A DNA stretch of 64,000 nt from the NCBI GenBank assembly GCA_017525875.1, contig JAFXSG010000001.1, positions 77,699 to 141,698 of the forward strand. Reading direction: 5' to 3'. A program made the translations under genes and the position numbers. Of this stretch, positions 6,050-60,757 are shown in pieces. This DNA is from Clostridia bacterium. GTDB lineage: Bacteria > Bacillota > Clostridia > Christensenellales > CAG-138. The notes under the pieces were generated by a model. The model was not told the DNA's origin and ran no database searches. It saw only the letters and a list, made by a program, of their open reading frames with translations. Position 1 is the stretch's first letter. Each line of letters opens with the position of its first letter.

Positions 6050-7546
6050 TTAATCGAAGCAGGAACGGATTAACTTAACGAGTTCTGCCCTGTCCACGTT
6101 CCCGGCGGTAATGTCTATACTGACCTCACCGCTGTAGACAACGGCGCGCCAGACAGGATACTCCGGATCGTCGGTCTGGCTGATAAAGGAATCTGCAGTC
6201 AGCTCCTCAAGCCTGACATCGTACCTGCGGACCGGGTCTTCGTATCCCTGCACGGCGTGGACCGCCTCAAGATCTCCGATATAGATATTGATATAGCCCG
6301 AGACCTTCGAACCCGGCGCGTATTCGTAGCTGAGGTTCAGGCGCTTGATACCGATCGTCCGCCCGGTTTTCCTTTCGACCTCGTATTCGCCGATGCAGTA
6401 CTCGAACCGGGCGTCTTCCGGGATGTAGTCAGGGATATACCTGCCGTATGTCGGCTCGAGAACAGCGTCTTCAAGCTTCATCCCGCGCAGCTGGGCGTTG
6501 TTTTCAACCGCTTCGCCTTCACCGCTTTCCATAGCGTCGAGGAAGGGGCGCACTTTCGCTTCGTCCAGCTCTATGAAGTAGCCGCCGAAGCTGCCAAGCA
6601 GCATGGCATATTTACCTTCAAGTATCCGCAGTCTTATCGAGAAGTCCCCAAGATCAAGCCAAACGAGCCAATGATCGCTGTTTGCAAGTGCCTCAAGCTC
6701 CTCCTCGGTCTCGTACGGGACGCACCAGGCGCCTTCGTCGATCGCCTGCATGAATGCCTTTGCCGCTTCGCTCTGCGCAGCAAGGGAATGCCTGATACCG
6801 TAAGCATGCTTTTCGGACTCCATATCCTCGTAGATTATCGACTCAAGCCTTTCGCCGACGTGGAAGCGCTCCTCGATGACGTCCGCGCCGTAGGCAACGG
6901 AGTACCCGTTATCGCAGATATAGACGACGAGCTCGCCTTCGTAGTAGGGGTTTTCCCTGCACAGCATGAACGAAGGATCGAAGCCGTTTACGGCATACAC
7001 CTCTCCTCTGAACACCCCTTCACCGTCATTGTACTCACTTGGCAGGCGATGATACACCTCTTTGACGGTCAGGACCCGTTCGCCGAGGTATGCAGCCTGA
7101 TCAAGCTCCCCGAAAGCGCTCCAGTACAGCCTTCCGTCATACTTGAAGAACGGCACCCATTCCACCAGCGTGTTTTCCGGAACGTCGAAATGATTTGTCA
7201 GATCCACCTTTTCACCTCTTGCTGCTGCCATATCACGCTTATAGGACAGCACGATATTGGAATCGAACCCGCCGCTTGAATGCAGCAGCGTAATGCGGGC
7301 GTGATCGCCGGGTACGTGAGTGTCGGCCGGCGCTTCTGTTTGTTCGCTCCCGTTAGCGGTCTGCTCTCCGCCCTTGTGCCCGATCTTGCCGATCGCAAGC
7401 GCAAGCACGAGCGCGAGAACAAACATTGCCGCTGCCGCGATCGCCAATCCAAAGCCTCTTCTGCGCACGGGGCGATAGTCCCCGGCCTGCTCCACAGCCC
7501 GATCGTCAACGGAATTCAGCGACTCCAGCAAATAATCGTTTTTCAT
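6050..7546 (-). CDS. Putative anti-sigma factor (single TM, large extracellular domain)
   Basis: LLESLNSVDDRAVEQA N-terminus followed by a TM; overlaps the ECF sigma stop codon. Confidence 0.65.
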   Translation of the reverse strand: MKNDYLLESLNSVDDRAVEQAGDYRPVRRRGFGLAIAAAAMFVLALVLALAIGKIGHKGGEQTANGSEQTEAPADTHVPGDHARITLLHSSGGFDSNIVLSYKRDMAAARGEKVDLTNHFDVPENTLVEWVPFFKYDGRLYWSAFGELDQAAYLGERVLTVKEVYHRLPSEYNDGEGVFRGEVYAVNGFDPSFMLCRENPYYEGELVVYICDNGYSVAYGADVIEERFHVGERLESIIYEDMESEKHAYGIRHSLAAQSEAAKAFMQAIDEGAWCVPYETEEELEALANSDHWLVWLDLGDFSIRLRILEGKYAMLLGSFGGYFIELDEAKVRPFLDAMESGEGEAVENNAQLRGMKLEDAVLEPTYGRYIPDYIPEDARFEYCIGEYEVERKTGRTIGIKRLNLSYEYAPGSKVSGYINIYIGDLEAVHAVQGYEDPVRRYDVRLEELTADSFISQTDDPEYPVWRAVVYSGEVSIDITAGNVDRAELVKLIRSCFD

Positions 7547-8103
7547 AAGGAATACCCTTCCTTTCTCAAATAATCGGCAAGCCTTCCGCGCATGCGAAAG
7601 AGTTCTGTCTTGACCTTGCTCTTTGAGAAACCGAACCGCTTTGAAAGCTCATCAACGGAATCGAAGAACCAATACCTCCTGATAAAGAGCATCCGTTTTT
7701 CCTCAGGCTGTGCCGCAAGAAATGCGTTTATCATTCGCCCCAGCTCCTTTGCTTCCGCTTCGGTATCAACGCTCATGTTCCCTGCAAGGCATTCCTCGAG
7801 CTCGTGCGTGAGCTCCGTGAATTCAGCGCTGCGCTTTCCGGCAGACGCTCTGCGAAGCCTGTCTATCGCAGCGGAGCGCAGCAGCTTTGCAAGAAACGCA
7901 AACAGGTATTCCCTCGGCTCATTCGGCGGGATCAGCTCCCAGGCACGCAGGTATACGTCGTTTTCGCACTCTTCGGCGGTCCCGGTGTCGCAGCCGAGCT
8001 TCAGTGCGGCCGACCTCAGCCTTGCGCCATACTTTAAGGACGTCTCCTTTACAGCATCCTCACTTCGCGCAAGATACAGATCAACGATCTTCGAATCGTT
8101 CAT
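7543..8103 (-). CDS. ECF RNA polymerase sigma factor
   Basis: MNDSKIVDLYLARSEDA, AEECENDVYLRAW and region 4 motif FIRRYWF..SKVKTELFRMR. Confidence 0.9.
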   Translation of the reverse strand: MNDSKIVDLYLARSEDAVKETSLKYGARLRSAALKLGCDTGTAEECENDVYLRAWELIPPNEPREYLFAFLAKLLRSAAIDRLRRASAGKRSAEFTELTHELEECLAGNMSVDTEAEAKELGRMINAFLAAQPEEKRMLFIRRYWFFDSVDELSKRFGFSKSKVKTELFRMRGRLADYLRKEGYSL

Positions 8104-8217: not shown

Positions 8218-9447
8218 TCAACTATCGATTATTCCGTATTGCTGAAGCAGCGCGATCCGGTTTTTTCCTATCTTAAGGCTTTCTGCCGGGCTGACCGGAC
8301 CGTTTTCGCGCTTGATCATGTACCTCCATGCCCTCTGCACCCACGCTGCGGGAAGCAGCCAAGGCTTCCTGCGCAGGTATGCGTAGCGTGATTCGAGGGC
8401 AGCTGCCGAGGGAAACAGCGACTTCAGCGTACTGCGCGCCTTCCGGCCGTTTTTCTGTGCAGCCACGGCGTCGAGCGTCATATTGCTCGAATGCAGGCGG
8501 TTGATATCGTTCGTACCGTACAGACCGCCTGTGATGATATCCTCAAGCAGCGGTTCAACGTCAATTTCGTTATCCGCAAAACAGCTCGGCCGCTCCTCAA
8601 ACCCGAGGTATTCTCTGCCGATGCCGAACATAGCCGCGGTCATTCGGTCGATGCGCAGTTTTTTGCATTCGGTGCCAATGCGCTCCCAATCGATCTCAGC
8701 GCTGTAATGCTTTGCGAACATATTGATATCCGCGATCTGGCGGATGCCTACGCCGCTGTGCAGGAAATGCTTGTAGGCGTGCAGGATGAGATAGAGCAGG
8801 TGATCGGTCGGCGCAAGCGTGCGCATCGTGACGCCCCAGACGTTCACCTCAACGCTCCGCTCGGCGGCATGCTCGAGCGCGGCGTTGCAGTCGCCGTATG
8901 CCTCGCTGTCCGGCGGGAAAAAGCACTTGTGGACCTCGATATACATGTGGTTATCGGGGTGCTTGTAAGCGACCTCATGATCAACGTCAAGCCGCGAGTC
9001 CGGATCATACAGCTCAAATCCGTAATCCTCGAGCGCTTGATGATAACGCATGAAGTCATCCGGATCGACAAGCAGATCCTCATCCACGGATATGCGCTGA
9101 TCCGGGTGAGGATAAAGCTCACGGCACATGATGCCCTTTGTGACGATAGGGAGAAGCCCCTTTCCGGCAAGATATCGGTAGAACAGCGTGAATTCCGCCG
9201 TCTGTTTCGCCTGAGCAAGCGTTTCGCTTTTTGCCTTGCGGGTCAGATATTCCGCACGGCGGGCGGATGAGGTGACAGCAGGGGAGAGATATGTGGCCTG
9301 CGCGATCATCGGCAGGAGCCGGTTTTCGGATGCAAGCCGAAGAAGGCGAAGCCAATCGTCGTTTTGGATAGGCTCCGCCCACTGTACGTGCTCGTCATGC
9401 AGCGCGCAGCTGAATGCTTCTAAAAGTTTTGCTTCCGTATTGTTCAT
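8218..9447 (-). CDS. Nucleotidyltransferase family protein (NTP_transf_5-like)
   Basis: IVTKGIMCRELYP..RISVDEDLLV, IEVH and LILHAYKHFLHSGVGIRQIADI motifs. Confidence 0.88.
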   Translation of the reverse strand: MNNTEAKLLEAFSCALHDEHVQWAEPIQNDDWLRLLRLASENRLLPMIAQATYLSPAVTSSARRAEYLTRKAKSETLAQAKQTAEFTLFYRYLAGKGLLPIVTKGIMCRELYPHPDQRISVDEDLLVDPDDFMRYHQALEDYGFELYDPDSRLDVDHEVAYKHPDNHMYIEVHKCFFPPDSEAYGDCNAALEHAAERSVEVNVWGVTMRTLAPTDHLLYLILHAYKHFLHSGVGIRQIADINMFAKHYSAEIDWERIGTECKKLRIDRMTAAMFGIGREYLGFEERPSCFADNEIDVEPLLEDIITGGLYGTNDINRLHSSNMTLDAVAAQKNGRKARSTLKSLFPSAAALESRYAYLRRKPWLLPAAWVQRAWRYMIKRENGPVSPAESLKIGKNRIALLQQYGIIDS

Positions 9448-9455
9448 ACGGCGGA

Positions 9456-9788
9456 TCAAAGTCCTCCGGATCCCTGATCTGTTGGGACCTCAATGACTAT
9501 ATCCTCGCCATGAGTATCGATCCATGCGTCGGGGTCAAACGTCTCGGCGGGTTCACCGGTCTCAACAAGCTCGCCGGTTTCAGCGGGCTCCGCCGATTCG
9601 GCAGGTTCCGCGGTTGCGTCCCCGGGAGCGGGCGTAGCGGCGGCTTCAGTATCGGTCACGACAGGAGCCGCTGTGGGATCCGTGCCGGCCGGATCACCGT
9701 TCGGATTGCAGCACAACAGCTTTACGGCGATGAGAGCGCCGACGATAAGCACTGCCGCAATGATTATTGCAATGAGTCTTTTGTTCAT
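9456..9788 (-). CDS. Small membrane-anchored acidic Pro/Thr/Ala-rich protein
   Basis: Signal/TM segment, LLCC, low-complexity linker, C-terminus EDIVIEVPTDQGSGGL; tightly packed in the operon. Confidence 0.7.
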   Translation of the reverse strand: MNKRLIAIIIAAVLIVGALIAVKLLCCNPNGDPAGTDPTAAPVVTDTEAAATPAPGDATAEPAESAEPAETGELVETGEPAETFDPDAWIDTHGEDIVIEVPTDQGSGGL

Positions 9789-9792
9789 TCGA

Positions 9793-10086
9793 TCATCCTT
9801 TCTGCTCATCGGAGAGCAAATAGTTTAGTCCTGCCATCTGCTTGATGAAATCCTCGATCACGGTGCGCAGCGCTTCGCGGTCATCGACCTCGAACTCTGC
9901 TTCGACAGCGGCAATAAGCTGCTCCGTGTCCGCCCCTTTCTCAAGCTGTTTCCACAGGAACGCGGAGGGTTCGTTGATCTGTGTGACGTACGGGCAAAGG
10001 TTCGTCAGGGAGCTCGCCGCAACGAGTATATTCTCGCCGCAGATATCGGTCAGCACTATGCCGGGTCTTGTTCTGTACTTAACCAT
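9793..10086 (-). CDS. PqqD-family protein / RiPP recognition element
   Basis: 97 aa with DICGENILV, INEPSAFLWKQL and EFEVD..IEDFIKQM..LL pattern typical of PqqD. Confidence 0.85.
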   Translation of the reverse strand: MVKYRTRPGIVLTDICGENILVAASSLTNLCPYVTQINEPSAFLWKQLEKGADTEQLIAAVEAEFEVDDREALRTVIEDFIKQMAGLNYLLSDEQKG

Positions 10087-10819
10087 TCGCGCCTCCTTCT
10101 CGGTTCCCTATAATAAACGCACGAAGAATCTCCGTGGATGGATCATCGCCCTTGTTGATGAATTTCGCAAGCTTGCCGGCGCCGATCAAGCGGTCCATGA
10201 CCTTTGCAAGCGCACGGATCTCAGTCTCCGTCCCGGGCGTAACGATGGCCTGATTGAAAAACGGGATCACAGCTTCCCTCGGTTCAAGCGGTTCGAGCCT
10301 GTTTTCACCGCCCTGCTCAAGCAGTATGACGCCGCCGAGCGGAGCGCGAAGGTCCTTGTTTCCGAAGTTCTCCTTGCCGCACCACGGCGTGGAATGGATC
10401 ATCACCGTGCCGTCTTCCCGCGGTTCGATCACGGGCATATCGCCTGTGATCATTTCGATCTCACCGGGGTGCAGTTGGCACCAGTTCAAAAACTGAGTGG
10501 TCTTCCCCGTACCGCTCGGAGCGGCAAGCAGCCATGCCTTGCCTTTGCAAACGAACGCTGCGGAATGAAAAATGCAGCAGCCCCATTTGAGCAAATGTCT
10601 TGATGTCAGCTCGATCAGCAGGCGGTACTCAACGTAATCGTCCCTGTACTCCGGCAAAAGCTTCCGTCCGGTCTCCATCAGCTCGGGCGTGGCGCAAATG
10701 TCAAACTCCTCCCCGGCCACCGGGCGGATATAGGAGCGAAAATTCAGCCACGTCCTCCTGCAGAGGAACGAATACCGCACCTCATGCCCCGCATATTCAA
10801 CTGCAAAGACCCTTTTCAT
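10079..10819 (-). CDS. HPr-kinase-like P-loop kinase (RiPP-cassette type)
   Basis: FHSAAF, Walker A APSGTGKTT, ITGDMPVI and TPWCGKE motifs. Confidence 0.8.
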   Translation of the reverse strand: MKRVFAVEYAGHEVRYSFLCRRTWLNFRSYIRPVAGEEFDICATPELMETGRKLLPEYRDDYVEYRLLIELTSRHLLKWGCCIFHSAAFVCKGKAWLLAAPSGTGKTTQFLNWCQLHPGEIEMITGDMPVIEPREDGTVMIHSTPWCGKENFGNKDLRAPLGGVILLEQGGENRLEPLEPREAVIPFFNQAIVTPGTETEIRALAKVMDRLIGAGKLAKFINKGDDPSTEILRAFIIGNREGGANG

Positions 10820-10857
10820 CTATTTTATTATACACGGTGCGTTTACCTTGTCAAGAA

Positions 10858-10888
10858 GAAAAGCGCGGAGGCTTGCTCCGCGCTTTTG
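10858..10888 (-). terminator. Hairpin/terminator after the precursor-like gene
   Basis: AAAAGCGCGGAG-gcttg-CTCCGCGCTTTT perfect stem. Confidence 0.8.
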
Positions 10889-10906
10889 CTTGTTGGTTCA
10901 GATGAG

Positions 10907-11224
10907 TTACCACTGATAGGGCACAACGTAGATGCCAAAATCCTCTTCGCTGTAACCAAGGGCTTTCCACTGAGCGAGGCTGTAATCGCAGTCCGCAAAC
11001 CACATGCCGTAGTCGTACATATCGGGCTGGCCGGACGTACCCTTGTCGTTCTGTTGATCGTAGAACTGCCAAAGGTTATCCGGGTGAGTAGCCCAAGCGT
11101 TAAAGTTCATCGGCAGGTCGTTGTTACCCAGACCGTCCTGAGCAGTACCGCCGCCGATGACGCCGGTAGGCGAGGGACTGGCTTCGAATACGATACCGGG
11201 GATACCGAATTTATTCTTGCTCAT
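10907..11224 (-). CDS. 105-aa hypothetical protein, candidate RiPP-like precursor
   Basis: RBS AGAGGTGG; N-terminal MSKNKFGIPGIVF followed by SPSPTGVIGGGTAQ and an Asp/Trp/Tyr-rich C-terminal half; lies upstream of the kinase and RRE. Confidence 0.65.
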   Translation of the reverse strand: MSKNKFGIPGIVFEASPSPTGVIGGGTAQDGLGNNDLPMNFNAWATHPDNLWQFYDQQNDKGTSGQPDMYDYGMWFADCDYSLAQWKALGYSEEDFGIYVVPYQW

Positions 11225-11244
11225 GTATTTCCACCTCTTTCTGA

Positions 11245-14200
11245 TCAGTTCCACTTGGTAACTGAATAGTTGGCAACAGAGTCGGACTGGGACGCAATAC
11301 CAACGGAGTTGATGTTATCGAGGCCCTGATACGTCCTGATCGCATAACCGGTGACCCTGAGGCCGTCCGGCGTTACCCAGTACTGAGCAACGGTGTCGCC
11401 GTTATTCAGCAGATTCACAACGGGCTGGCCGTTGCTGCCGTGGTTGATAACGGTCAGATAGTTCAGATAGCCCCTCGTGCGGAACAGGCTCGTTGCGGTC
11501 AGCGTCTGAGAGCTGTCGCCGTGCGTGGTCGTCACCGTAAGGGATCTGACGATATGCTCTGCAGCGTCATTAGCGGACTTAACGACGTAACCGGTCTCCA
11601 GATAATCGGTGTAGGACAGGTCAACGTCGGAGATCAGCCACGCGGTGGAGATGCTGCCGCTGGCAAGGTAGTAGGTGTAGTGCAGGTAAGGCCTCAGGTA
11701 CTTGTCGGCCGGGACCTCCTTGATGTAGTAGGTCGTGCCGGCAACGGGATTCAGCTCGGTGCCGTAGTCGGCATTGTCAGCCTGCTTGTAAGGCACTGCG
11801 GTCCACTTGACGTTATAGCCGTTGTAGGCCTTTGCTGCGGTGCCGTTCACGGGAGCGTCCTGCTTCTGCTGTGCCCAGGAAGCGTCCTTAACGAGCTCGC
11901 CGTTGTTCCAGGAGACGTTAACGTCATCCCAGGTCATGACCTTTGCGCCGTCTTCCTGAGTGAACTGACCGCTGACGCCGTCATAGTACTTGTAGTAACC
12001 GGCGTAGAGGTAGTTCTCCGTGGTGCTGCCGGCGAGGTCGTAGGTGCCGTCCTTAGTGGTGCGGACGATCTTCTCGACCTGGTTGGTGCCGGAATGGTAG
12101 ACGTAGAACACGCTTGCCCAGACGGCGTACATGCCGTGGTAGGGCATGATCTCGTCCGCGGCGACTGCGGTGGCGGGCTTCCACTCGTCACCGAACTTCG
12201 CGAGGAAGTAGCCGTGGGTCTCGCCCTCAGTGGGGTAGACGTACTTAAGGAACAGGTCGTCCTCGTTCAGATCGCGGACCTTCGTATAATCCGGGTTCGC
12301 AACCTGCTGATGAGTATCGGGATCCTCGATAGTGGGCATAAACTCGGTGCCGATGTTGCCGTTCGTATCGCTGATCGGGATCCTTGCCCAGCCGAGGAAC
12401 ACGTGGTCTTCCCAAACGAGGTTGTCGTCGTCGCCCCAGATGAGCTCGTCGGCCTTGGCGCCGCCAGGGGTGGTGGTATCCGCCTCGGGATACTCGATAG
12501 CGATGGTCTCGTTCATGATGACGTCGGTGGAGTTCTTGTAATCACCGGTGTTGTTGTTCGCGTGCCAGGTGATGTGGGTCTTCTCCTGGATGACCCTCGG
12601 GCCGTAGGTCGCGCGGAGCGTTACGGTGTAAGTCTTGGTGACGGTCTTCGAATAGGTCGCGTAAACGACGAGGTTCGAAGTGATTTCGGAGAAGTCCTTA
12701 TCCCAACCGGTGAAGTTGTAGCCGGGACGGGTGGGATCGGCGGGCGCAGAAGCGCTTTCACCCTCGGCAACGGTCTGGGTGCTGAGCACGCGGCCGTTCC
12801 AATCCTTGAAGGTGACGAGGTAGTGACCGGCCTGCTGGAACTCATAATACGCGGTGAACGTCAGATCCTCGGTGACCGTGGTGTAGTTAGCGGGATCGGG
12901 ATTCCAGCGGACGAAGTAGTAGTTCTCGTTGCTGTGGTCGGGCGTGGCGGGAGTCGCGGGCATCGCGCCGCCGTCCTCGACTTCATAGGCATGAATGATG
13001 CTTTCGGTATAGCCGTCGACAAACGTCACGGTGTGCGGAACGGCAACCTGCTCCTCGACCCACTCCTTGTGGTAGAGCTGGACGTATTCACTGGAAGAAT
13101 GCTCCGTGAACACACCCATGTAGTTGCCGGTACCGCCGGCAGAAGCATACTCCGCGTACATCGTCGTTCCGTTGACGGAACGCGTCAGGGTCTTGTTGGC
13201 CGAATTCCAGACCCAGTTTGTAGCATAAGTGTTCGAAGTGTCGGGATACAGATCGTTATATCCCGTGCTGGAGTAAGTCCTGAGGTAATAGTTGGAGTTG
13301 CTGCCACTCGTGATAGTACCGCCTGTGGTCGTAGAGAAGGTCCAGGTGCAGTAATCAAGATTGGTCGCGTTGCCGGTAACGCCGGTAACGATCTCGCCGT
13401 CCCTGATCGCTACGCCGGTATAGCCGAGGTAATTACTACTGTTATTATAATAGTAGTGGTTGGTCGCTGTTTCGTTGTAGTTGACCGCAAGATAAACGGT
13501 ATCGCCTACGACAAAGCCGATCAGGTAATCGTCATCGGGAACGATAGTGGTGACGGGCTTCCACTCATAGTGACCTTCGCCCTGCGAGGAGTTCTGCTCA
13601 TACTGAGCGGTGACCGTGAGGTTGGAGGTGACGTTCGAGAAGTCGACGTCCCAACCGGTGAAGGTGTAGCCGGCGCGGGAGGGATCCGCGGGAGCGGTCG
13701 CAGCCTGGCCCTCGGTGACGGTCTGAGTCTTCAGAACGGTGCCGTCCCAATCCTGGAAGGTGACGGTGTAGGTGGCAGCAGCGTTCTTCGTGTAGGTGAC
13801 GGTGACCTCAACGTCCGAAGTGCCCATGGTGCCGGATACGGTCGTCTGGCTCGGCGTGTAGCCGGTGATGGACGGAACGGTTACGCTGTAGTCTTCGCCC
13901 TGAGCGACCTGCGAGTTATGCGCAGTGGGAGCGGTGGTGCCGTCTGCCATCACGTAGTTGACCGTGAGGTTATAAGCGCGGGCGTAGATGCTGATGGCGT
14001 CGGCAGAACTTGCCTTAGCAACAGAATAGTCATAATAATCGGTGCTGGATGTATCCAAGTACAGGTAGTAATAGCCACCCGCCTCCACCTGGTTATTAAA
14101 GCGACGGCTGCTGTCGTACAGCCATGCTAAAGCCGTCGACGATGTGGTAAGGTAACCGTCATCATAATCAGTAAGGTCAAGATATTCACTATTTGCAACA

Positions 14201-17200
14201 TTTCGCCACGTATAGCCATTGGCTGCATTGCCACCTGCGACCCAAGTTACATCGTTGACAGAATCTGCGGGAACGGCGATAGTATCGCCGGTTTTTGTTA
14301 CAACAACGGCAAGCAGCCAGCTCTTGCTTGCATTACCTGAATCAGACCCGTCTGCATTAAATGAATTAGGAGTATGATCCTTCGAAAGAGCGTAAGCATC
14401 GGCGGCATCCGAAACGATAACGTAGGGAACGCCGACAACGGGAGCGTCGACCTTCTTGTAGGTCACGGTCTCGTCAGAACCGGAGCCGCTGTCGTCCTGA
14501 ACGTAGAGCTTGACTGTAACGTCGTTGCCGGAGGTTGTTGTGACCGCACGCATATTATTACCGCCGTCGTAGCTGTAATATGAAGCGTACTTGTTGTTAT
14601 TGTACCTTAAAGTGTTAGCTGAGGCATTCCATGTCCAATTATAACTGGGTTCGGAACGATCGGGATACAAGTCAACGTAGCTGCCGGCAGAAGCATATAG
14701 ATACCTGCTGCCGTATACGCTGGTGATGTTGCCGCCGGTGGTGCTTGAGAAATTCCACTGGCAGTACTGCAGATCGGTCGCATTGCCGGATACGCCTACG
14801 ATCTTGCCGCCGTTGAATACAGCGGGAGCGGTATAGCCGTAATAGTTATAGTTGCTATCGGAAACATAGTATCTTGCATTGCCGGATTGAGACGCGTTAT
14901 AGCTGACCATCAGGTAAACCGTGCCGTCGACCTCAAAGCCGATCAGGTAGGTCTTGCTGGTATCGATGGTAGTATCGGTGTACTCGACCCAGGTCTCGCC
15001 GGCCTTGGTATCGACGGAGGTGCTCCTGGTGCCGTATACGGGGTTCAGCGTGATGGTGCCTTCCACCGCGTACTGAGCGTCGACCTCGAAATCCTGGCCG
15101 GGATGCTTGTAGATGCCGGTGCCATTGCCGTTCTTATCGAGGATCTCCCAATAGAGGAACTGCCAATCCTTGGGGATATCCGGAGTGGAGGCGGTGCGGG
15201 TATAGGCGGTCGCCTTGTCCATGTAGCGGAGCGGATCCTCCCAGTAGGTGGGGGTGCCGTCCAGCTCGGCGAAGGTGCCGGTATGGCCGGCCACGTTCTC
15301 CTGCTCAATGGCATTGTACCTGACGGTGATGCCGTTGGCGCCGGAAAGGACCTTACGCCACTTGGCGTAAATGACGACCTTCTTGGTGATCCAGGGACGG
15401 TTGATATCGCCATTGGTGCCGTTGGACTCGGTGGGTTCGGTCTTGGGATAGTTCACCGCGATTTCGTCATTCAGACGAGTGGCGAAGTTGTAGGGCTCCG
15501 TGCAGGCCTCGTCAATGTACCAGCCGACAAGGACGTAGTTGCCGTTCGCGTCGCTGGCTTCGATGGGCTGACCGTCGGAGATCTGGCCGAGGTAATCCAC
15601 GCGGAAGTTCATCGCCTGGCTCGATTCCGCCCACTGGACCTGGAAATTGGGATCGGAGGGGAGGTTGGGCTCAAGGAACACGCGGTACTGGCGCTTGATG
15701 AACTTGGCATAAACCGTTACGCCGTTAAGAGGCATGGTCTTGCCGGTGAAATCATAGGCGGTGGTGCAGCCGGGGTCGACGTACCAGCCGTCGAAGATGA
15801 AGCTTTCATCCGTGAAATCGCCCGCGGAGATCGGATCGTAGTAGTTGGCGCCGCCGACCTTGTAGGAATCGATGGAAGCCTCGTAGTAGATAGTCGGGGA
15901 CTGCTTGAGCTGACCGGCCATCGGGCCGTCTACGGCGTTGCCGTTGCCGTCCGCATATTTGCCGACCATGTAGTGGATGCGGTACTTGTTGCGGGTGTAA
16001 CGGAACTGGATACCGCCCTCTGTGGCGTTCCAACGTATAAGCTCATGACGGGTATTGCCTTCATACTCAACGCCGGTGCCATATTCAAACCAATCCGTCC
16101 AACCATCAACAGCAGTATGGGATTCGGGGTTTACAAGGTTGTCGCCGTTATACTCCGTACCGGTCGTATAAGTAGTAACACCGGAAGGAAGGTTGATCCT
16201 GAATACGGAACGTGTGAAGCCCTGGAAGCTCCTGAATACCATGCCGTTGCCAGTCTGAGTGGGGATCGTGTAGTTCGCGGACGCAGGCCAATTGCCATTT
16301 TCGTCCATCAGGAAATGGTAGACGTTGGTATTGAAGTTTTCAGAACGGCCGTAGAAGTCGGTATGGTAAACGTCTGCGGGATCCTCATTCGCACTCTGGC
16401 CGAAAGTATCTTCAATACTGGTAAAGGTGCTGCCTGAGGCCGAATTGAACCAACGGTAGTCGGTCGGCCAGGTATAACCCGCTGTTACCAAGCGCTGGCC
16501 GTAAAGACCCGAGAAGGTCGTTCTTTCGCCATAGTTCGGAACATAGATCGAGCTGCTCGAGGAAGATACACGCCTGTAGACCGTTAACGAGGAATTGTAT
16601 TCCATCCAGTACGTAGAGCCATTATACGTAAAGTAATAATCGTAATAACTCGAAGAATACGTCAGCGCGTAGAAAGTGTTGTCGATCAGCACGAAGTACG
16701 TATTGGAAGAAGTACTTGTCAGGCTGCCGGGCCATACATAGTATCCATAGGTACCGGCCGAATTGTGGTTGGTAATAGGATAGTATGTACCGTTCTCATA
16801 GTAATAATAGACGCCGGATGAAAAATTGACGCTGGTAGCTCTGGAGTAGCCGGTGGGGATGAGGAAGGTGTAAGTGACCAACTCACGATCCCAATAGAGG
16901 TTGACTACCGTGGAGCCGTTGGGAAGCACCGTGGTGTTGTTGGCAGTCACGCCGCCGCCAATGGTGACGTAGCCGCTGCCCGAAGCTGCCTGATGAGTGC
17001 TGTTGTATTTGAATCCGAAGAAGTTATTCCAAGTACCGGAACCGTCGGGCTTGGTATTGATGCCATATTCGCTGGTATCACTATCCACGGTGTAGGTGTG
17101 AGTGGTTTTGAAATAACTCAGATCGAGAGCGGAAACGTTCGTATTCGGCGCGGCGTTCAGCGTGGTGGAGAACGCATAGTCGTAGGTCTTGTTGGCTTCC

Positions 17201-18639
17201 GCCGCGTTCTTATCGTCGTTAACGCTCTGCTTCCAGACGATAAGGGTATAGGGAACGGAGGACTTCAGAGTCCACTTGGCGTAGACCGTGGTATCCTGGG
17301 AGATCGTTCCTGTGAAGCTGAACTGGTTGGACCAGGTGCCGTTGGCATAGGTGGTGTACCAGCCGCCGAAATCATAGCCCGCGAGCTCGGGATTGGGGGT
17401 GGGCCTTGCATTCGAGGGGATGTTGCCGTGCGGGCAGAAAATGGGAGCGTTATAGGTAGCGCCCTTGAAGTTTCCGCCGGGGTTCTCCTCGAAAGTCAGC
17501 CAATAGCCCTGCTGCACCTGCGCACGCAGCGTGGTGAGGGTATTGGTGATGGTGACTTCCGAATTGTTCTGGTAAACGGTATCGTCGCCGTCGTCCTTCT
17601 GCCAGCCGGTGAAGCGGTAGCCCTGCTCCTCGGGAGTGTACAGATGGTAAATGGTGTAGTTGATGGAGTTATCCTTGGAGAAGATGGTCTGGAAATCGAG
17701 GGTGGTCGCACCGTTCTCATCGACGTATGCAACGTTGAAATACTTGTAGACCATCGCGTATACGTCGAAGGTCTGTCCCTCGGTGACGGGGCTTGCAAGG
17801 CGAGTCCTTACCTGAGCGCGGATATAGTCGATGGTGTGCTGACCGTCGATATCGGCAGTGGTGTAGGCGTTGCCGACGGACCAGCCGCAGAACATCTCGC
17901 CCTCGTTGACTTCGGGAAGCTCGGGGTCTTCGATGATCGTGCCGAGGATGTCGATATCGCGCTGAGTGACGTTGACTACGTACGCGGGCTCGGTATCGTC
18001 GTCATGATAGAAGAAGCGAACCTGCAGACGGGCATTTTCGCCGGTGGCGTCGCCGATGACCGCGTAAACGGAGAAGTCCTCCGCGTCGAAGGTGATGGTC
18101 TGGCCGCTGACGTAGAACTGTTCGACGACCTCCATCTCGGCGGTATCGATCTCATCCGCGCCGCCCTTGAAGTGGACAAGGCGGATATTCTCGAGGTTGG
18201 CGATGACGCTGTTGTCGAGGATGACCGTGACCGGCTTTCTGGGGTCGACTTCTTCACCGTTGTTGATGAAGTTGATGTCGACCGCGGTGAAAACGTGGCC
18301 GCGCTCGTCGGACGCTGCGTTGAACGCGTCCTGAACCGCGTCGAGATCCGCAATGGTCACGACGTCGAGCTCGGTGTCGGCGGGCAGAGCGCCTCTGGGT
18401 GCGTCGACGTGCACTGAAGTGCCGCCAAGCACGTTGTCTTCCATTGACTGCGCAGGATAGGTGGGCTTGAACTGGTCGGCGATGGGCTTGGCGATCCAGT
18501 CAAGGAAATCCTTGGCAGCTCTGCGGTCATTGCCGTCGGCAGGATTCTGCGCTCCGGTATAAGCCGAAACGGGGAACGCCGTGACGATCATGATGACGGC
18601 GAGCGCCAGCGCGATGAACTTCGCAAAACGCTGTTTCAA
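11245..18639 (-). CDS. 2464-aa secreted surface protein with InlB-B/Listeria-Bacteroides-type repeats and a MucBP-like module
   Basis: TTG start after AAGGAGG; signal peptide; repeated YTVTF.D....P.DP.R.GY.FTGWD units; no LPXTG, SLH or C-terminal TM seen. Confidence 0.85.
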   Translation of the reverse strand: MKQRFAKFIALALAVIMIVTAFPVSAYTGAQNPADGNDRRAAKDFLDWIAKPIADQFKPTYPAQSMEDNVLGGTSVHVDAPRGALPADTELDVVTIADLDAVQDAFNAASDERGHVFTAVDINFINNGEEVDPRKPVTVILDNSVIANLENIRLVHFKGGADEIDTAEMEVVEQFYVSGQTITFDAEDFSVYAVIGDATGENARLQVRFFYHDDDTEPAYVVNVTQRDIDILGTIIEDPELPEVNEGEMFCGWSVGNAYTTADIDGQHTIDYIRAQVRTRLASPVTEGQTFDVYAMVYKYFNVAYVDENGATTLDFQTIFSKDNSINYTIYHLYTPEEQGYRFTGWQKDDGDDTVYQNNSEVTITNTLTTLRAQVQQGYWLTFEENPGGNFKGATYNAPIFCPHGNIPSNARPTPNPELAGYDFGGWYTTYANGTWSNQFSFTGTISQDTTVYAKWTLKSSVPYTLIVWKQSVNDDKNAAEANKTYDYAFSTTLNAAPNTNVSALDLSYFKTTHTYTVDSDTSEYGINTKPDGSGTWNNFFGFKYNSTHQAASGSGYVTIGGGVTANNTTVLPNGSTVVNLYWDRELVTYTFLIPTGYSRATSVNFSSGVYYYYENGTYYPITNHNSAGTYGYYVWPGSLTSTSSNTYFVLIDNTFYALTYSSSYYDYYFTYNGSTYWMEYNSSLTVYRRVSSSSSSIYVPNYGERTTFSGLYGQRLVTAGYTWPTDYRWFNSASGSTFTSIEDTFGQSANEDPADVYHTDFYGRSENFNTNVYHFLMDENGNWPASANYTIPTQTGNGMVFRSFQGFTRSVFRINLPSGVTTYTTGTEYNGDNLVNPESHTAVDGWTDWFEYGTGVEYEGNTRHELIRWNATEGGIQFRYTRNKYRIHYMVGKYADGNGNAVDGPMAGQLKQSPTIYYEASIDSYKVGGANYYDPISAGDFTDESFIFDGWYVDPGCTTAYDFTGKTMPLNGVTVYAKFIKRQYRVFLEPNLPSDPNFQVQWAESSQAMNFRVDYLGQISDGQPIEASDANGNYVLVGWYIDEACTEPYNFATRLNDEIAVNYPKTEPTESNGTNGDINRPWITKKVVIYAKWRKVLSGANGITVRYNAIEQENVAGHTGTFAELDGTPTYWEDPLRYMDKATAYTRTASTPDIPKDWQFLYWEILDKNGNGTGIYKHPGQDFEVDAQYAVEGTITLNPVYGTRSTSVDTKAGETWVEYTDTTIDTSKTYLIGFEVDGTVYLMVSYNASQSGNARYYVSDSNYNYYGYTAPAVFNGGKIVGVSGNATDLQYCQWNFSSTTGGNITSVYGSRYLYASAGSYVDLYPDRSEPSYNWTWNASANTLRYNNNKYASYYSYDGGNNMRAVTTTSGNDVTVKLYVQDDSGSGSDETVTYKKVDAPVVGVPYVIVSDAADAYALSKDHTPNSFNADGSDSGNASKSWLLAVVVTKTGDTIAVPADSVNDVTWVAGGNAANGYTWRNVANSEYLDLTDYDDGYLTTSSTALAWLYDSSRRFNNQVEAGGYYYLYLDTSSTDYYDYSVAKASSADAISIYARAYNLTVNYVMADGTTAPTAHNSQVAQGEDYSVTVPSITGYTPSQTTVSGTMGTSDVEVTVTYTKNAAATYTVTFQDWDGTVLKTQTVTEGQAATAPADPSRAGYTFTGWDVDFSNVTSNLTVTAQYEQNSSQGEGHYEWKPVTTIVPDDDYLIGFVVGDTVYLAVNYNETATNHYYYNNSSNYLGYTGVAIRDGEIVTGVTGNATNLDYCTWTFSTTTGGTITSGSNSNYYLRTYSSTGYNDLYPDTSNTYATNWVWNSANKTLTRSVNGTTMYAEYASAGGTGNYMGVFTEHSSSEYVQLYHKEWVEEQVAVPHTVTFVDGYTESIIHAYEVEDGGAMPATPATPDHSNENYYFVRWNPDPANYTTVTEDLTFTAYYEFQQAGHYLVTFKDWNGRVLSTQTVAEGESASAPADPTRPGYNFTGWDKDFSEITSNLVVYATYSKTVTKTYTVTLRATYGPRVIQEKTHITWHANNNTGDYKNSTDVIMNETIAIEYPEADTTTPGGAKADELIWGDDDNLVWEDHVFLGWARIPISDTNGNIGTEFMPTIEDPDTHQQVANPDYTKVRDLNEDDLFLKYVYPTEGETHGYFLAKFGDEWKPATAVAADEIMPYHGMYAVWASVFYVYHSGTNQVEKIVRTTKDGTYDLAGSTTENYLYAGYYKYYDGVSGQFTQEDGAKVMTWDDVNVSWNNGELVKDASWAQQKQDAPVNGTAAKAYNGYNVKWTAVPYKQADNADYGTELNPVAGTTYYIKEVPADKYLRPYLHYTYYLASGSISTAWLISDVDLSYTDYLETGYVVKSANDAAEHIVRSLTVTTTHGDSSQTLTATSLFRTRGYLNYLTVINHGSNGQPVVNLLNNGDTVAQYWVTPDGLRVTGYAIRTYQGLDNINSVGIASQSDSVANYSVTKWN
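13070..14990 (-). repeat. Two diverged copies of a roughly 160-aa module within the surface protein
   Basis: YLIGF.V..TVYL.V.YN...GNAT.L.YC.W.FS.TTGG.ITS...DLYPD...NW.WN at about 14500-14990 and 13070-13560. Confidence 0.75.
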
Positions 18640-19014: not shown

Positions 19015-20805
19015 ATGGAATCGGCTAATGACAATAAAACCGAAAAGGCGTTTTTCAGCTCACTGAAAACGCTCGCGAAAAGAAAGCGCGATGGCAGCCT
19101 TGGGGAGATAATCGACGACTGGCGATGGATCTTTACCTACACCAGGCGCCACAGGCTTGCCGTTGTGTTCTATACCGTCCTCGGCATACTCAGCACGACG
19201 ATGGGGCTCGTTGCGAGCGTTGCGGGCAAGTACATGATCGATATCATCACCGGCCGCCAGACCTCCAAGCTCGGTCTGATGATCGCGGTGATGCTCGGCA
19301 GCGCGGCGTTCAGCCTCCTGTTCTCGAACCTGATCAGCAGGCTTTCGGCGAAGATCAGCATCCGCATCAACAACGATATCCAGGCGGATATCTTCGACCA
19401 GATAATCGACGTGGACTGGAAGGCAATCAGCGAGTACTCGAGCGGCGACCTTATCAACCGCTTCAACGGCGACGTCAGCACGGTCAGCAAGAACGCGATC
19501 AGCTGGCTCCCTACCATTATAATAACTATCTACAGCTTCGTCGTTACCTTCGCCGTGATCTGGCATTACAACAAGGTGATGTCGCTGCTCGCCTTTGCCA
19601 GCGCTCCTGTGATGCTGGTCATGAGCAAGTATTTCATCAACAAGCAGCGGGAATACGCGAAAAAGGTCCGCGAGACCGGCAGCGAGATGATGGGCTTCGA
19701 AGTGGAGACCTTCTATAATTTCGATACTATCAAGTCCTTCGGCATCATGGAGAGCTACGGGCGAAAACTACGCCAATGGCAGGAGAAGCTCAAAACACTG
19801 AGCCTTGCCTACAACCTCTTTACGATCAAGACGAACGTCTTCATGTCCGTCCTCGGGATGATCGTTCAGTACGCGGCTTTCGGTTACTGCCTGTTCCTTC
19901 TCTGGACGGGGCAGATAACCTTCGGCACGATGCAGCTGTTCCTTGACCAGCGTGTGAAGCTCTCGTCCGCATTCAACAACGTGGTCGGCATCATACCGTC
20001 GTTCCTTGCAAGCTCCGTCTCCGCCCACCGCATCAGGGAACTGATCGATCTCCCGCGCGAAAAGCATATCCCGGAAAGCAGTAAACTCAGGGAGCTTGAA
20101 AACGACGGGTTCGAGGTCAGGATGGACGGTGTGAACTTCGCTTACGTGAAGGAAAAGCAGGTCATCATCGATTCCGCCTTCCGCGCAGCCCCTGGCGAGA
20201 TCGTTGCGATCATCGGCCCGTCCGGCGAGGGCAAGACCACGCTGATCCGCCTTATCCTCGGCCTGATCCATCCGGATTCCGGCACCTGCTTCCTGCGTGC
20301 TTCGGATGGGAGCGAGGTGGAGATGAATGCCGACAGCCGCTCGATGTTCTCATACGTTCCGCAGGGCAACACGATCCTCTCGGGCACCATCGCCGAGAAT
20401 ATGCGCCTCGTTCGCGAGGATGCGACGGATGAGGAGATCATAAACGCTCTTAAGGTCGCCTGCGCATGGGATTTCGTCTCGCGAAACCCCGCAGGGATAA
20501 ACGCAAAGGTCGGCGAGCGCGGCCGCGGTTTTTCGGAAGGCCAGGCTCAGCGCCTTGCAATAGCGCGCGCCGTGCTGCGCGACGCACCGATCCTGCTGCT
20601 CGACGAGGCCACCTCGGCTCTCGATGTCGAGACGGAACGTAACGTCCTGCGCAATATCATAAAGCAGCGGCCGAACAAGACCTGCATCGTCACGACCCAC
20701 CGCCCGACGGTGCTCAGCCTTTGCAAGCGCGTCTACCGCGTGGTGAAGGGCACGGTAACGGAGCTGGACGAAGACGAATCCGCAAAGAGCGTCATGGATT
20801 TCTGA
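19015..20805 (+). CDS. ABC exporter, fused permease/ATPase
   Basis: TM domain, Walker A GPSGEGKTT, FSEGQAQRLAIARA signature and LLLDEATSALD. Confidence 0.92.
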   Translation: MESANDNKTEKAFFSSLKTLAKRKRDGSLGEIIDDWRWIFTYTRRHRLAVVFYTVLGILSTTMGLVASVAGKYMIDIITGRQTSKLGLMIAVMLGSAAFSLLFSNLISRLSAKISIRINNDIQADIFDQIIDVDWKAISEYSSGDLINRFNGDVSTVSKNAISWLPTIIITIYSFVVTFAVIWHYNKVMSLLAFASAPVMLVMSKYFINKQREYAKKVRETGSEMMGFEVETFYNFDTIKSFGIMESYGRKLRQWQEKLKTLSLAYNLFTIKTNVFMSVLGMIVQYAAFGYCLFLLWTGQITFGTMQLFLDQRVKLSSAFNNVVGIIPSFLASSVSAHRIRELIDLPREKHIPESSKLRELENDGFEVRMDGVNFAYVKEKQVIIDSAFRAAPGEIVAIIGPSGEGKTTLIRLILGLIHPDSGTCFLRASDGSEVEMNADSRSMFSYVPQGNTILSGTIAENMRLVREDATDEEIINALKVACAWDFVSRNPAGINAKVGERGRGFSEGQAQRLAIARAVLRDAPILLLDEATSALDVETERNVLRNIIKQRPNKTCIVTTHRPTVLSLCKRVYRVVKGTVTELDEDESAKSVMDF

Positions 20806-20928: not shown

Positions 20929-21789
20929 ATGAAAAGACTTAGATTCGCGATAGTGATATTTTTCCTTGTGTCGGCAGTTCTGTTTGTTGCCGCCTATGTT
21001 CGCAGGAGGTATTTGACGGACAGAACGCCGCCGGTGATCACTGCGGACACGAACACACTCACCGTAAGTATCACCGCGACCGACGAGGACCTTATGAAAG
21101 GCATGACGGCGTTTGACAATATCGACGGGGATGTAACTTCAAAGCTCGTCGTGGTGTCAAGGAGCAAGTTCATTGAGAAAGGCGTCATCCACGTCAATTA
21201 TGCCGCGTTCGACAGCAGCCGCAACGTGGGCACTAAGGTCAGGACGGTGACTTTTGAGGACTACGTTTCGCCGAGGTTCCATCTTTACGCTCCGCTTCGC
21301 TTCCCGACGGGGAGCTCCGGCATCGATTATTTGGAAAATATCACCGCCGAGGACTGCATCGACGGCAATCTCAACTCGCAGATAAAGATCAGCCTGGGTC
21401 AGACGACGGCTGTCAGCGAAGCCGCTACAAAGCAGAAAATGGATATCCAGGTCACGAACAGCTGCGGAGACAACGCCGTGCTCGAGCTGACCGTCAGCAA
21501 TGAGAATTACGCGTCATACAGCACTCCCTCGCCGGCATTGCGCGAATACATCGCATACGTGGAAAAGGACGGGAGGATTAGCCTGACCTCCTATATTTCG
21601 GGCATCTGGACCGCGGGTACTGCGCGAGGCTTCGAGAATTCAGGCTTTGACCCGGCACGGGATATCAGCATCGATGAAAACGGTCTGGACGTCAGCACCC
21701 CGGGCGTTTACACCGTCACCTATCAGCTTTTCAACACCGCCAGAGAACCGCTCGGCACTGCTGAGCTGATCGTAATTGTGGAGGATTGA
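20929..21789 (+). CDS. Membrane-anchored protein with Ig-like repeats
   Basis: N-terminal TM; DRTPPVI, AFDNIDGDVTSKL, AEDCIDGNLN and TPGVYTVTY motifs. Confidence 0.7.
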   Translation: MKRLRFAIVIFFLVSAVLFVAAYVRRRYLTDRTPPVITADTNTLTVSITATDEDLMKGMTAFDNIDGDVTSKLVVVSRSKFIEKGVIHVNYAAFDSSRNVGTKVRTVTFEDYVSPRFHLYAPLRFPTGSSGIDYLENITAEDCIDGNLNSQIKISLGQTTAVSEAATKQKMDIQVTNSCGDNAVLELTVSNENYASYSTPSPALREYIAYVEKDGRISLTSYISGIWTAGTARGFENSGFDPARDISIDENGLDVSTPGVYTVTYQLFNTAREPLGTAELIVIVED

Positions 21790-21791
21790 AT

Positions 21792-52313: not shown

Positions 52314-52342
52314 TTGATTCCGTAGCCTTAAAGTGGTACAAT
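52314..52342 (+). promoter_or_regulatory. Sigma-A-type promoter of the polymerase-like gene
   Basis: TTGATT(52314)-17 bp-TACAAT(52337) with TG extension. This implies the real start is ATG 52360 or GTG 52372. Confidence 0.6.
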
Positions 52343-52359
52343 TATTCGAAAACCGAACG

Positions 52360-56563: not shown

Positions 56564-56666
56564 CGGCTTTCCGAGAGAAGAAAGCCGATCAGTCAGACTG
56601 AAATCGAACGGACAACATTTCCTTAGGAGGAAATTGTTGCTTCCATCTGTAAACGGAGGAAGCCCT

Positions 56667-60729: not shown

Positions 60730-60757
60730 TAGTATTCTCAATTGGAAAAGAAGACAT

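Follow-up and report, generated by a model that had tools for sequence, protein, structure and literature searches.

A putative LPP-like, RRE-guided phosphorylation cassette linked to giant surface proteins of gut and rumen bacteria

Clusters that combine a RiPP (a peptide made by the ribosome and modified post-translationally) recognition element (RRE) with an HprK-like kinase, an NTP-transferase and a pump resembling MsbA, and that lack a cyclase, have been described as linear polyphosphorylated peptides (LPPs; Popov et al., Nat Commun, May 2026, PMC13381572). LPP precursors are 35-200 aa long, with an N-terminal YxxPxVL.. motif ([Y/W]xxPx[L/V/I/F/A] type) and a variable C-terminus, and their phosphorylation was shown by mass spectrometry; in B. 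subtilis, an LPP cluster placed one to four phosphates on Ser3 of the core in an LppK-requiring manner, and the leader of LppA was cut after Thr-1 (T|AQS). These clusters sit within capsule loci, and their biological role was stated to be unknown, biofilm formation being mentioned as speculation only (PMC13381572). Among lasso peptides, HprK homologs polyphosphorylate the C-terminal Ser of paeninodin-type precursors (PMC8498205), and PsmN, a DxD nucleotidyltransferase, adds hexoses (162-Da units) to the phosphate of pseudomycoidin (PMC6993621). The motif bound by lasso and LPP RREs is YxxPxL or, more broadly, [Y/W]xxPx[L/V/I/F/A] (PMC6784204; PMC13381572). Here, we describe a locus at positions 8218-11224 (minus strand) of a 64,000-nt stretch of a Clostridia bacterium genome (GCA_017525875.1, contig JAFXSG010000001.1; hereafter the window), in which genes for enzymes of these kinds follow the gene of a 2464-aa secreted giant surface protein. 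We read it, with a probability of roughly 55%, as an LPP-like, RRE-guided peptide or protein phosphorylation system dedicated to a giant surface adhesin.

The giant gene occupies 11245-18639 on the minus strand, and 20 nt past its stop codon, preceded by the Shine-Dalgarno sequence GAGGTGG, lies the ATG of a 105-aa precursor-like small protein (10907-11224, minus), which we refer to as type A. A GC-rich, terminator- or attenuator-like hairpin of 12 bp (10859-10887, minus) stands 3' of this open reading frame (ORF) and runs into TTTTCTTCTT (T-run). The four cassette genes then follow on the same strand, each overlapping the next by 4-17 nt: a ScmC-family P-loop protein with a PEPCK/HprK-P fold, which is a putative peptide kinase (10079-10819); a discrete PqqD-family RRE of the lasso-B1 type (9793-10086); an acidic, Pro/Thr-rich protein of 117 aa that is signal-anchored or lipoprotein-like, hereafter the tether (9456-9809); and an NTP_transf_5 nucleotidyltransferase with an intact DxD...E site (8218-9459). 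An earlier note, written from the letters of this sequence, had listed the small ORF, the hairpin and these four genes, and all six elements were found on the minus strand by the ORF list and family scans. The note had named the enzyme trio correctly; its precursor-like peptide turned out to be a conserved gene with an N-terminal [F/Y/W]xxPx[I/V/L] motif among 35 homologs, and its statement that no class-defining RiPP enzyme is visible was also borne out. The cassette that it described is real but stands as the 3' part of a larger unit headed by the giant gene, a link that the note had overlooked.

This link emerged from a co-occurrence analysis. We used 20 loci from the same bacterial family, together with a reverse search over 201 genomes of that family, and a wider scan with one genome per species that yielded 78 loci, several of which are on the same contigs as the family loci. 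The 78 loci come from Oscillospiraceae, Lachnospiraceae, Erysipelotrichaceae, Anaerovoracaceae, Christensenella and others, mostly as rumen or gut metagenome-assembled genomes (MAGs), and include isolates of Dysosmobacter (L082) and Faecousia (L086). Among the 64 loci with at least 3 kb of upstream sequence, a giant, taken as any ORF of 500 aa or more whose end falls within 1.2 kb, was present upstream of the cassette in 57; at least one of the seven misses (L048) is a threshold artefact, its giant ending 1255 nt upstream. In the family set, 19/20 loci have, directly upstream of the kinase-like gene, an ORF of 57-108 aa, and a long same-strand ORF ends ahead of it in 20/20, as far as the contigs reach. 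The small ORF is always located between the giant and the kinase-like gene. No gene families recur in the 78 loci other than the giant (63), the kinase-like protein and PqqD (63), the nucleotidyltransferase (38) and the small ORF, along with an ABC exporter and a 290-aa protein in 11 each.

The reverse search, which started from the C-terminal module of the giant, gave 14 giants in 13 of the 201 family genomes. All 12 assessable giants had a kinase-like gene within ~1.1 kb downstream, and the remaining two reach contig ends, with a type A small ORF 20 nt after each. Two complete units were found on each of two contigs (L038 with L044, and L042 with L074). Each adhesin gene has its own cassette. 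The gene arrangement is far beyond chance and recurs in dozens of genomes. In one genome (G005), a type A small ORF stands after each of two different giants (L108:1844-2092 and L109:1364-1633); these ORFs share identical 3' halves, and both contigs break there, which has the look of a repeated cassette collapsed during assembly.

The loci differ in what accompanies this association. Type A loci (27) have the giant in 23/23, PqqD in 25/26 and the nucleotidyltransferase in 20/22 cases, whereas type B loci (13), whose small ORF of 57-65 aa ends in ..LPDG.x[VI]..D..GN[IV], have the giant in 12/12 and PqqD in 12/12 but the nucleotidyltransferase in only 2/10 and the tether in 0/10. From these counts, the invariant core is therefore the giant, the small ORF, the kinase-like protein and the RRE; since this core lacks the tether, we argue that the small ORF, not the tether, is the client of the RRE and the kinase. 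A third layout, type C, was also observed (L014:5144-6448 and L022:8863-9471), in which a tethered acidic protein is encoded upstream of a small ORF of 87-88 aa that ends in ..STQG[IL]G.. and has no N-terminal Pro motif.

The tether lies between PqqD and the nucleotidyltransferase in 22 of the 43 loci holding both genes. It consists of a signal anchor or lipobox (many members have the lipobox Cys), an acidic Pro/Thr-rich spacer and a conserved C-terminus, which in the window reads ..GEDIVIEVPTDQGSGGL (9459-9509, minus) and across loci has the consensus E[DN]GG[DE][IL][VI]I.[IV]P.[DG][QM][EG]SGG[LF]; Pfam and NCBIfam scans assigned it to no known family. The strong conservation of this motif, with a Ser in a Gly-rich context similar to that of the small-ORF loop, is one ground for supposing that the true substrate is the tether, or else the giant adhesin, modified before export, and that the small protein does no more than assist the giant as an accessory subunit or chaperone. 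The nucleotidyltransferase and the tether co-occur in type A loci, and the small ORF is apparently co-transcribed with the giant while the hairpin separates off the cassette, both of which would fit such a scheme. We nevertheless consider it unlikely: the minimal conserved set has no tether, a signal anchor or lipobox would export the tether away from cytoplasmic enzymes, and the sole RRE-type motif is in the small ORF, where it is invariant in 35/35 homologs.

That motif was defined in a full-length alignment of 35 type A small-ORF homologs. Pro-9 is the sole invariant column (35/35); position 6 is aromatic in 35/35 (24 F, 7 Y and 4 W), and position 11 is hydrophobic in 35/35, giving an RRE-binding-type motif, [F/Y/W]xxPx[I/V/L/F/M], that appears in the window as FGIPGIV at residues 6-12 (11189-11209, minus). 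Within the first 18 residues, [FYW]xxPx[ILVFM] occurs in 61 of the 4457 mechanical ORFs of the window's genome, a background of 1.4%. The small ORF thus carries the precursor motif of LPP clusters, and the longer LPP consensus past this motif is not present. Residues 24-29, GGGTAQ (11138-11155, minus), form a Gly-rich loop with a conserved Ser/Thr (G24 in 30/35, G26 in 28/35, S/T27 in 31/35 and Q29 in 24/35). This G-[S/T]-[G/A]-Q loop resembles the T|AQS junction of LppA (PMC13381572) and is a candidate processing or phospho-acceptor site.

The rest of the small protein is a C-terminal domain marked by Trp-44, Tyr-72 and Trp-75. In the AlphaFold2 (AF2) model, residues 1-35 were disordered, and residues 36-105 were compact and helical with a pLDDT of 82-95. 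A Foldseek search of the PDB with this model returned nothing at E<=0.001, a missing match that is not proof of a new fold, and a wide VIA-align search gave a best Z of 3.5. A word-index homology search with the small ORF found 9 proteins; in an exhaustive profile search, 268 cluster representatives came up at E<=1e-3 and 125 at E<=1e-10, most of them 75-120 aa long and with matches starting at residue 1. A few long proteins repeatedly matched profile positions 38-78, and Pfam scores them as Dockerin_1/EF-hand repeat proteins; the small-ORF domain therefore appears to hold one dockerin-like repeat, an indirect argument that the helical domain may carry a single dockerin-like Ca-binding repeat. 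The small ORFs had no Pfam matches, and in place of the paired repeats of Dockerin_1, they show a single repeat-like segment. A complex prediction combining the RRE with residues 1-40 of the small ORF scored 0.21 against a mark of 0.32, with controls not folded, and was used in neither direction.

The presumed partner of the motif, the window's PqqD protein, matches PF05402 at E 1.9e-9 and is nearest in sequence to the solved lasso B1 RREs: the best PDB matches of its profile were TbiB1 (5v1u, 2.7e-7), two PqqD-family chaperones and TfuB1 (6jx3, 9.5e-5), and PqqD proper (3g2b) reached only 0.64. It is thus a discrete lasso-B1-type RRE, as found in LPP clusters. The nucleotidyltransferase, likewise of the kind found in LPP clusters, matches PF14907 at E 4e-47, and Asp-126, Asp-128, Glu-175 and His-177 are invariant in 44 sequences; the invariant Asp-126/Asp-128 pair parallels Asp-134/Asp-136 of PsmN, and a D134A/D136A mutant of PsmN was inactive (PMC6993621).

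The kinase-like protein had no match in the Pfam library searched and only a weak one to the NCBIfam ScmC model (TIGR04249), at E 2.7e-4, with 20.4 bits against a cut-off of 125. Its 283 homologs at E<=1e-3 come from Oscillospiraceae and Clostridia MAGs, and the named ones are all annotated as hypothetical; PF27840, which the ESM Atlas names ScmC, is precomputed on many of them, including one protein that is 98% identical. The AF2 model, built with 33 sequences, had a pLDDT of 94.9 and matched PEP carboxykinases in Foldseek at E 1e-6 (TM ~0.53-0.61 on the query) and HprK/P at 4.8e-6 (1kkl_B) and 3.1e-5 (1jb1). The correspondence with the HprK-like kinase of LPP clusters is therefore one of fold only, with no HprK family match at the sequence level. 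Within the family, Gly-105, Lys-106, Thr-108 and Asp-127 are invariant, and the P-loop with the invariant Asp-127 parallels the arrangement of P-loop and downstream acidic residues in PsmK, in which mutation of Asp-158/Asp-159 abolishes phosphorylation (PMC6993621).

Given that sequence similarity to HprK is nil and that the whole-length PEPCK fold match is at least as good as that to HprK/P, the ScmC-like protein might instead be an ATP-dependent assembly or export factor, with the RRE as an adapter that hands the small protein to secretion and with no covalent phosphate; literature searches found no studied member of the ScmC family. This alternative seems to us quite improbable, because the P-loop and invariant downstream Asp form the very arrangement mutated in PsmK (PMC6993621) and because LPP and lasso systems use this gene set to make phosphopeptides (PMC13381572, PMC8498205).

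The enzymes that define other RiPP classes were absent. The window's genome is 92% complete, and the window lies on the contig labelled C21. Radical SAM proteins had no match on that whole contig, all 17 matches in the genome lying elsewhere; YcaO and the lasso B2 leader peptidase (PF13471) had no match in the 92%-complete genome; and for the macrolactam synthetase of paeninodin-type lasso clusters, the genome gave only two partial PF00733 matches (61 and 36 of 354 positions), neither in the window. Family scans of the contig, the genome and the 78 related loci found no cyclase, B2 protease, radical SAM or YcaO gene at any locus, in agreement with the earlier note, and no recurrent extra family across the 78 loci. 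A leader peptidase of the SpI-like kind was also missing, both among the window ORFs from 5 to 22 kb and among the 78 loci, which contain no homolog of the SpI-like protein described below at E<=1e-5; two SipW-type genes (TIGR02228 matches) are located on another contig of the genome (C35). Nor did the 78 loci contain any homolog of the radical SAM protein described below, so the ScmE/ScmF radical SAM/SPASM partner of the Scm cassette has no counterpart in them.

The same genome encodes a self-contained paralogous RiPP-type cluster on contig C34 (L006:6800-13053), comprising an ABC exporter, a SpI-like peptidase (TIGR02228, E 1.8e-9), PqqD, a radical SAM/SPASM maturase (its best match, TIGR04463 at 2.7e-38, being below cut-off), a 52-aa ORF, and ScmC-like and PF14907 proteins. 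The cluster adjoins a large surface protein ending in a dockerin-like repeat pair. Twenty lower-scoring ScmC-like loci from the same bacterial family as the window, examples being L110-L129, have this type of context, with a radical SAM gene in 7/20 and a SpI-like gene in 6/20. Such clusters resemble the window in having ScmC-like, PqqD and, in part, PF14907 proteins and a small ORF beside the kinase-like gene, but differ in carrying a radical SAM maturase and/or SpI-like peptidase plus an ABC exporter, and they belong to a separate clade. In a quick maximum-likelihood tree of 67 kinase-like proteins, restricted to loci with at least 3 kb upstream and to proteins of 200-300 aa, 46 rows formed a clade, 43 of them giant-linked, with an SH-aLRT of 99, and 16 of the 18 paralogs linked to radical SAM or SpI-like genes grouped apart. 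A third PqqD-family gene in the genome (86 aa; contig C8, L007:8378-8638) is solitary amid polysaccharide-type genes, with no kinase-like or PF14907 neighbour seen.

The presence in one genome of a complete paralogous cluster with its own ScmC-like, PqqD, PF14907, radical SAM, SpI-like and ABC proteins and 52-aa ORF raises the thought that the window's cassette is a remnant or helper of that pathway, or of a lasso pathway, encoded elsewhere and acting on that precursor. We give this hardly any credence. The C34 paralogs are only 25-29% identical to the window proteins, fall in a different clade and belong to a cluster that is self-sufficient; the giant-linked cassette recurs in 78 loci without a radical SAM or SpI gene; and the 92%-complete genome has neither a lasso B2 match nor a full cyclase match.

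Compared with the described systems, the locus is closest to the LPP clusters, with which it shares the RRE, the kinase fold, the nucleotidyltransferase, the precursor motif and the lack of a macrolactam cyclase, as well as a capsule or exopolysaccharide setting (the polysaccharide cluster at 20.9-43.9 kb) (PMC13381572). An MsbA-like pump also lies nearby, its link to the unit being uncertain. Because LPP clusters with the same enzyme set were published in May 2026 (PMC13381572), the earlier note's description of the system as uncharacterised is outdated. The window differs from LPPs in several respects: it has no SpI-like leader peptidase (LppS, of the archaeal, SipW-like type), the protein that guided LPP discovery; the aromatic residue of the motif is mostly Phe, and there is no VLxHQxIxFETxxS leader consensus; the precursor is predicted to contain a folded helical domain; and a tight link joins the locus to a giant surface protein and, in type A, to a tethered acidic protein (PMC13381572). 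The carriers also stand apart from those of LPPs, being gut and rumen Clostridia and Erysipelotrichaceae. Since the LPP data set was seeded with SpI homologs, loci without SpI could not enter it (PMC13381572). The words adhesin, surface, Clostridia, dockerin and radical SAM do not occur in the main text of that paper; a few SpI-linked entries from Lachnospiraceae and Ruminococcus appear in its supplement. An adhesin link of such cassettes was found neither in our literature searches nor in the LPP main text, and the text of the LPP supplement was searched in part.

The lasso precedents that the note had cited, paeninodin and pseudomycoidin, are sound (PMC8498205, PMC6993621). Their modification module consists of the same three kinds of protein (PadeK/PsmK, B1 RRE and PsmN) and recognises the same type of leader motif; in contrast to it, the window's system has no cyclase or B2 protease in the locus or the assembled genome, no conserved C-terminal Ser, a substrate of 57-108 aa and an adhesin-linked cassette (PMC8498205, PMC6993621). 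With the SynChlorMet cassette (ScmC family, PF27840; TIGR04249), the window shares the P-loop family, which pairs with PqqD-type proteins, but it lacks the ScmE/F-type radical SAM/SPASM partner and scores far under the NCBIfam cut-off. Literature searches found no paper for the SynChlorMet cassette, none for the combination of HPr kinase, radical SAM, RiPP and PqqD, nothing relevant for PqqD, surface protein and Listeria-Bacteroides repeat combined, and for PF14907 only a phosphonate inventory.

The giant to which the cassette is attached matches the Pfam family Flg_new (Listeria-Bacteroides repeats) at E 3.6e-38, and also MucBP, and has no recognisable wall anchor. Its C-terminal module of ~290 aa (11248-12192, minus) is the best-conserved part among 61 giants, with 16 invariant alignment columns. 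This module had no PDB sequence match at E<=1, and no Pfam family matched more than 1 of 20 members; its best ESM Atlas match (0.88), to a Ricin-type lectin cluster, serves only as a lead. In the window's genome, the module, the small ORF and the tether each occur in a single copy.

The regions between these genes suggest how the unit may be transcribed. In 20 of 30 type A loci, the gap that separates the small ORF from the kinase-like gene contains a strong hairpin followed by a T-run, a count from a scan of even lengths only that missed the window's own hairpin. Past the hairpin, the window has a consensus sigma-70-type promoter-like site (10827-10854, minus; 12/12 hexamer match, TTGACA-16-TATAAT) that ends 7 nt before the kinase-like ATG. 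The same promoter-to-ATG arrangement (10817-10854, minus) is present in L029, and a match of at least 10/12 was found in only 3 of 76 loci, so that the site is shared solely with the nearest relatives; in most loci, therefore, the enzymes are probably read through the attenuating hairpin, a layout that probably yields precursor in excess of enzyme. The perfect -35/-10 pair only 7 nt from the ATG, with no Shine-Dalgarno sequence, suggests that the mRNA of the kinase-like gene is possibly leaderless. A bovine metatranscriptome contig of 538 nt matches 10896-11401 with 9 differences, a span that takes in the small ORF and the giant gene's 3' end, and contigs of another RNA library lie on the nucleotidyltransferase gene, the PqqD/tether junction and the giant gene. 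These short contigs are weak evidence for expression of the small ORF, the giant 3' end and the cassette because RNA libraries may contain DNA, and the stretches that they do not cover carry no information.

An MsbA-like ABC exporter (Pfam ABC_membrane and ABC_tran; best NCBIfam match MsbA_rel, 253 bits, below the cut-off of 780) is encoded at 19015-20805 on the plus strand. The earlier note had listed it as a divergent exporter; the exporter is present, but it diverges from the giant gene, not from the cassette, and lies 7.8 kb from the latter. Orthologs 75-80% identical to it occur in 5 of the 20 family loci, and an ABC exporter lies within 7 kb in 11 of the 78 loci. It is a possible pump for the product, its link to the unit being uncertain.

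With such an exporter nearby and a leader that ends in GG(G) in many type A members, the small ORF could also be viewed as an exported bacteriocin-like or signalling peptide, whose N-terminal 26 residues (..VIGGG) would be a double-glycine-type leader cut by the ABC exporter and whose adjacency to the giant would be incidental. A hairpin past the precursor gene is also typical of bacteriocin operons. We regard this as very improbable: the ABC protein (596 aa) has no peptidase domain, its transmembrane region starting from residue 51; exporters are near so few of the loci; and the adjacency to the giant holds in 57/64 loci across several families, with each giant gene having its own cassette.

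Directly downstream of the cassette on the same strand (6050-8103) lie the genes of a 186-aa ECF sigma factor and of a protein of 498 aa that belongs to no known family and may be an anti-sigma factor. We considered this pair as a part of the unit and rejected it, since a homologous sigma factor follows the cassette only in L022 and the 78 loci show no recurrent cluster of this kind. On the other side, the plus-strand genes at 20929-43857 form a long surface-polysaccharide cluster that encodes a surface Ig-like protein, two Wzz/BY-kinase-type P-loop proteins, EpsG, LicD, GT1/GT2/GT4 glycosyltransferases, a pyruvyl transferase and a Wzt-type ABC ATPase; a long Tyr-rich YG[RKNH] tail closes the first of its P-loop proteins (21786-23375). 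Farther along, a large serine recombinase is encoded at 46233-47738, and a 1019-aa protein with a weak match to eukaryote-type RNA-dependent RNA polymerase (PF05183, E 1.4e-7) at 52333-55392 (plus), followed by a 995-aa N6 DNA methylase (56634-59621) and an AbiH protein (60554-61711) in a low-GC stretch (0.40-0.43). This region looks like a defence or mobile island.

Several observations weigh against reading the locus as an adhesin-dedicated phosphorylation system. With regard to the enzymes, the kinase-like protein has no Pfam Hpr_kinase_C match and no NCBIfam kinase match above cut-off, its sequence profile matches only P-loop proteins in the PDB (PezT best at 0.011), the leader peptidase is absent from the locus and has no SpI-like homolog in the 78 loci, and deletion of LppN, the nucleotidyltransferase, had no visible effect in the LPP study (PMC13381572). 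As for the small protein, it has no export signal and an ABC pump is near only 11/78 loci; its 70-aa folded domain in the AF2 model is unusual for a RiPP core; position 30, the equivalent of LppA Ser3, is Ser/Thr in only 9/35 homologs; and there is no conserved C-terminal Ser as in the paeninodin type. Type B loci mostly lack the nucleotidyltransferase and the tether, and some of their small ORFs lack the Pro motif. Finally, the set of 78 loci shares members with that of the 20 family loci, and related genomes do not count as independent samples.

On the adhesin-dedicated reading, which we prefer at the probability given above, the RRE would bind residues 6-12 of the small protein and so present the flexible Gly-rich segment to the kinase-like enzyme. 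This enzyme, modelled on LppK, PadeK and PsmK, would put one or more phosphates on Ser/Thr in or near the G-[S/T]-[G/A]-Q loop (residues 24-29), and in type A loci the nucleotidyltransferase would then extend the phosphate with a hexose or a nucleoside monophosphate, in the manner of PsmN. The hairpin after the small ORF would keep precursor transcripts above enzyme transcripts. Once exported, the modified small protein may act on the cell surface alongside the giant's C-terminal module and the acidic protein tethered to the membrane. A bolder version, which we put forward as a speculation and hold to be rather doubtful, is that the six-gene unit constitutes an unrecognised maturation and anchoring pathway for giant adhesins of Clostridia that have no sortase-type signals: an RRE-guided kinase, assisted by the nucleotidyltransferase in type A, would make from a mini-protein with one dockerin-like repeat a phospho-(glyco/nucleotidyl) adaptor that couples the C-terminal module to the envelope via the lipid-tethered acidic protein or the neighbouring polysaccharide.

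In many Clostridia and Erysipelotrichaceae of the gut and rumen, the LPP enzyme logic is tied here, gene for gene, to giant surface proteins of a single kind. The LPP family would be extended in two ways, to loci in which the peptidase that led to its discovery is absent and to a substrate with a predicted folded domain, and two conserved, uncharacterised modules come into view, the ~290-aa C-terminal module of the giant and the ~70-aa helical domain of the small protein. The locus thus offers a testable hypothesis, namely that phosphopeptide modification serves adhesin display. If this is true, RiPP-style leader recognition would build cell-surface architecture and not a diffusible natural product in these bacteria, and LPP-type phosphopeptides would have their first biological role.

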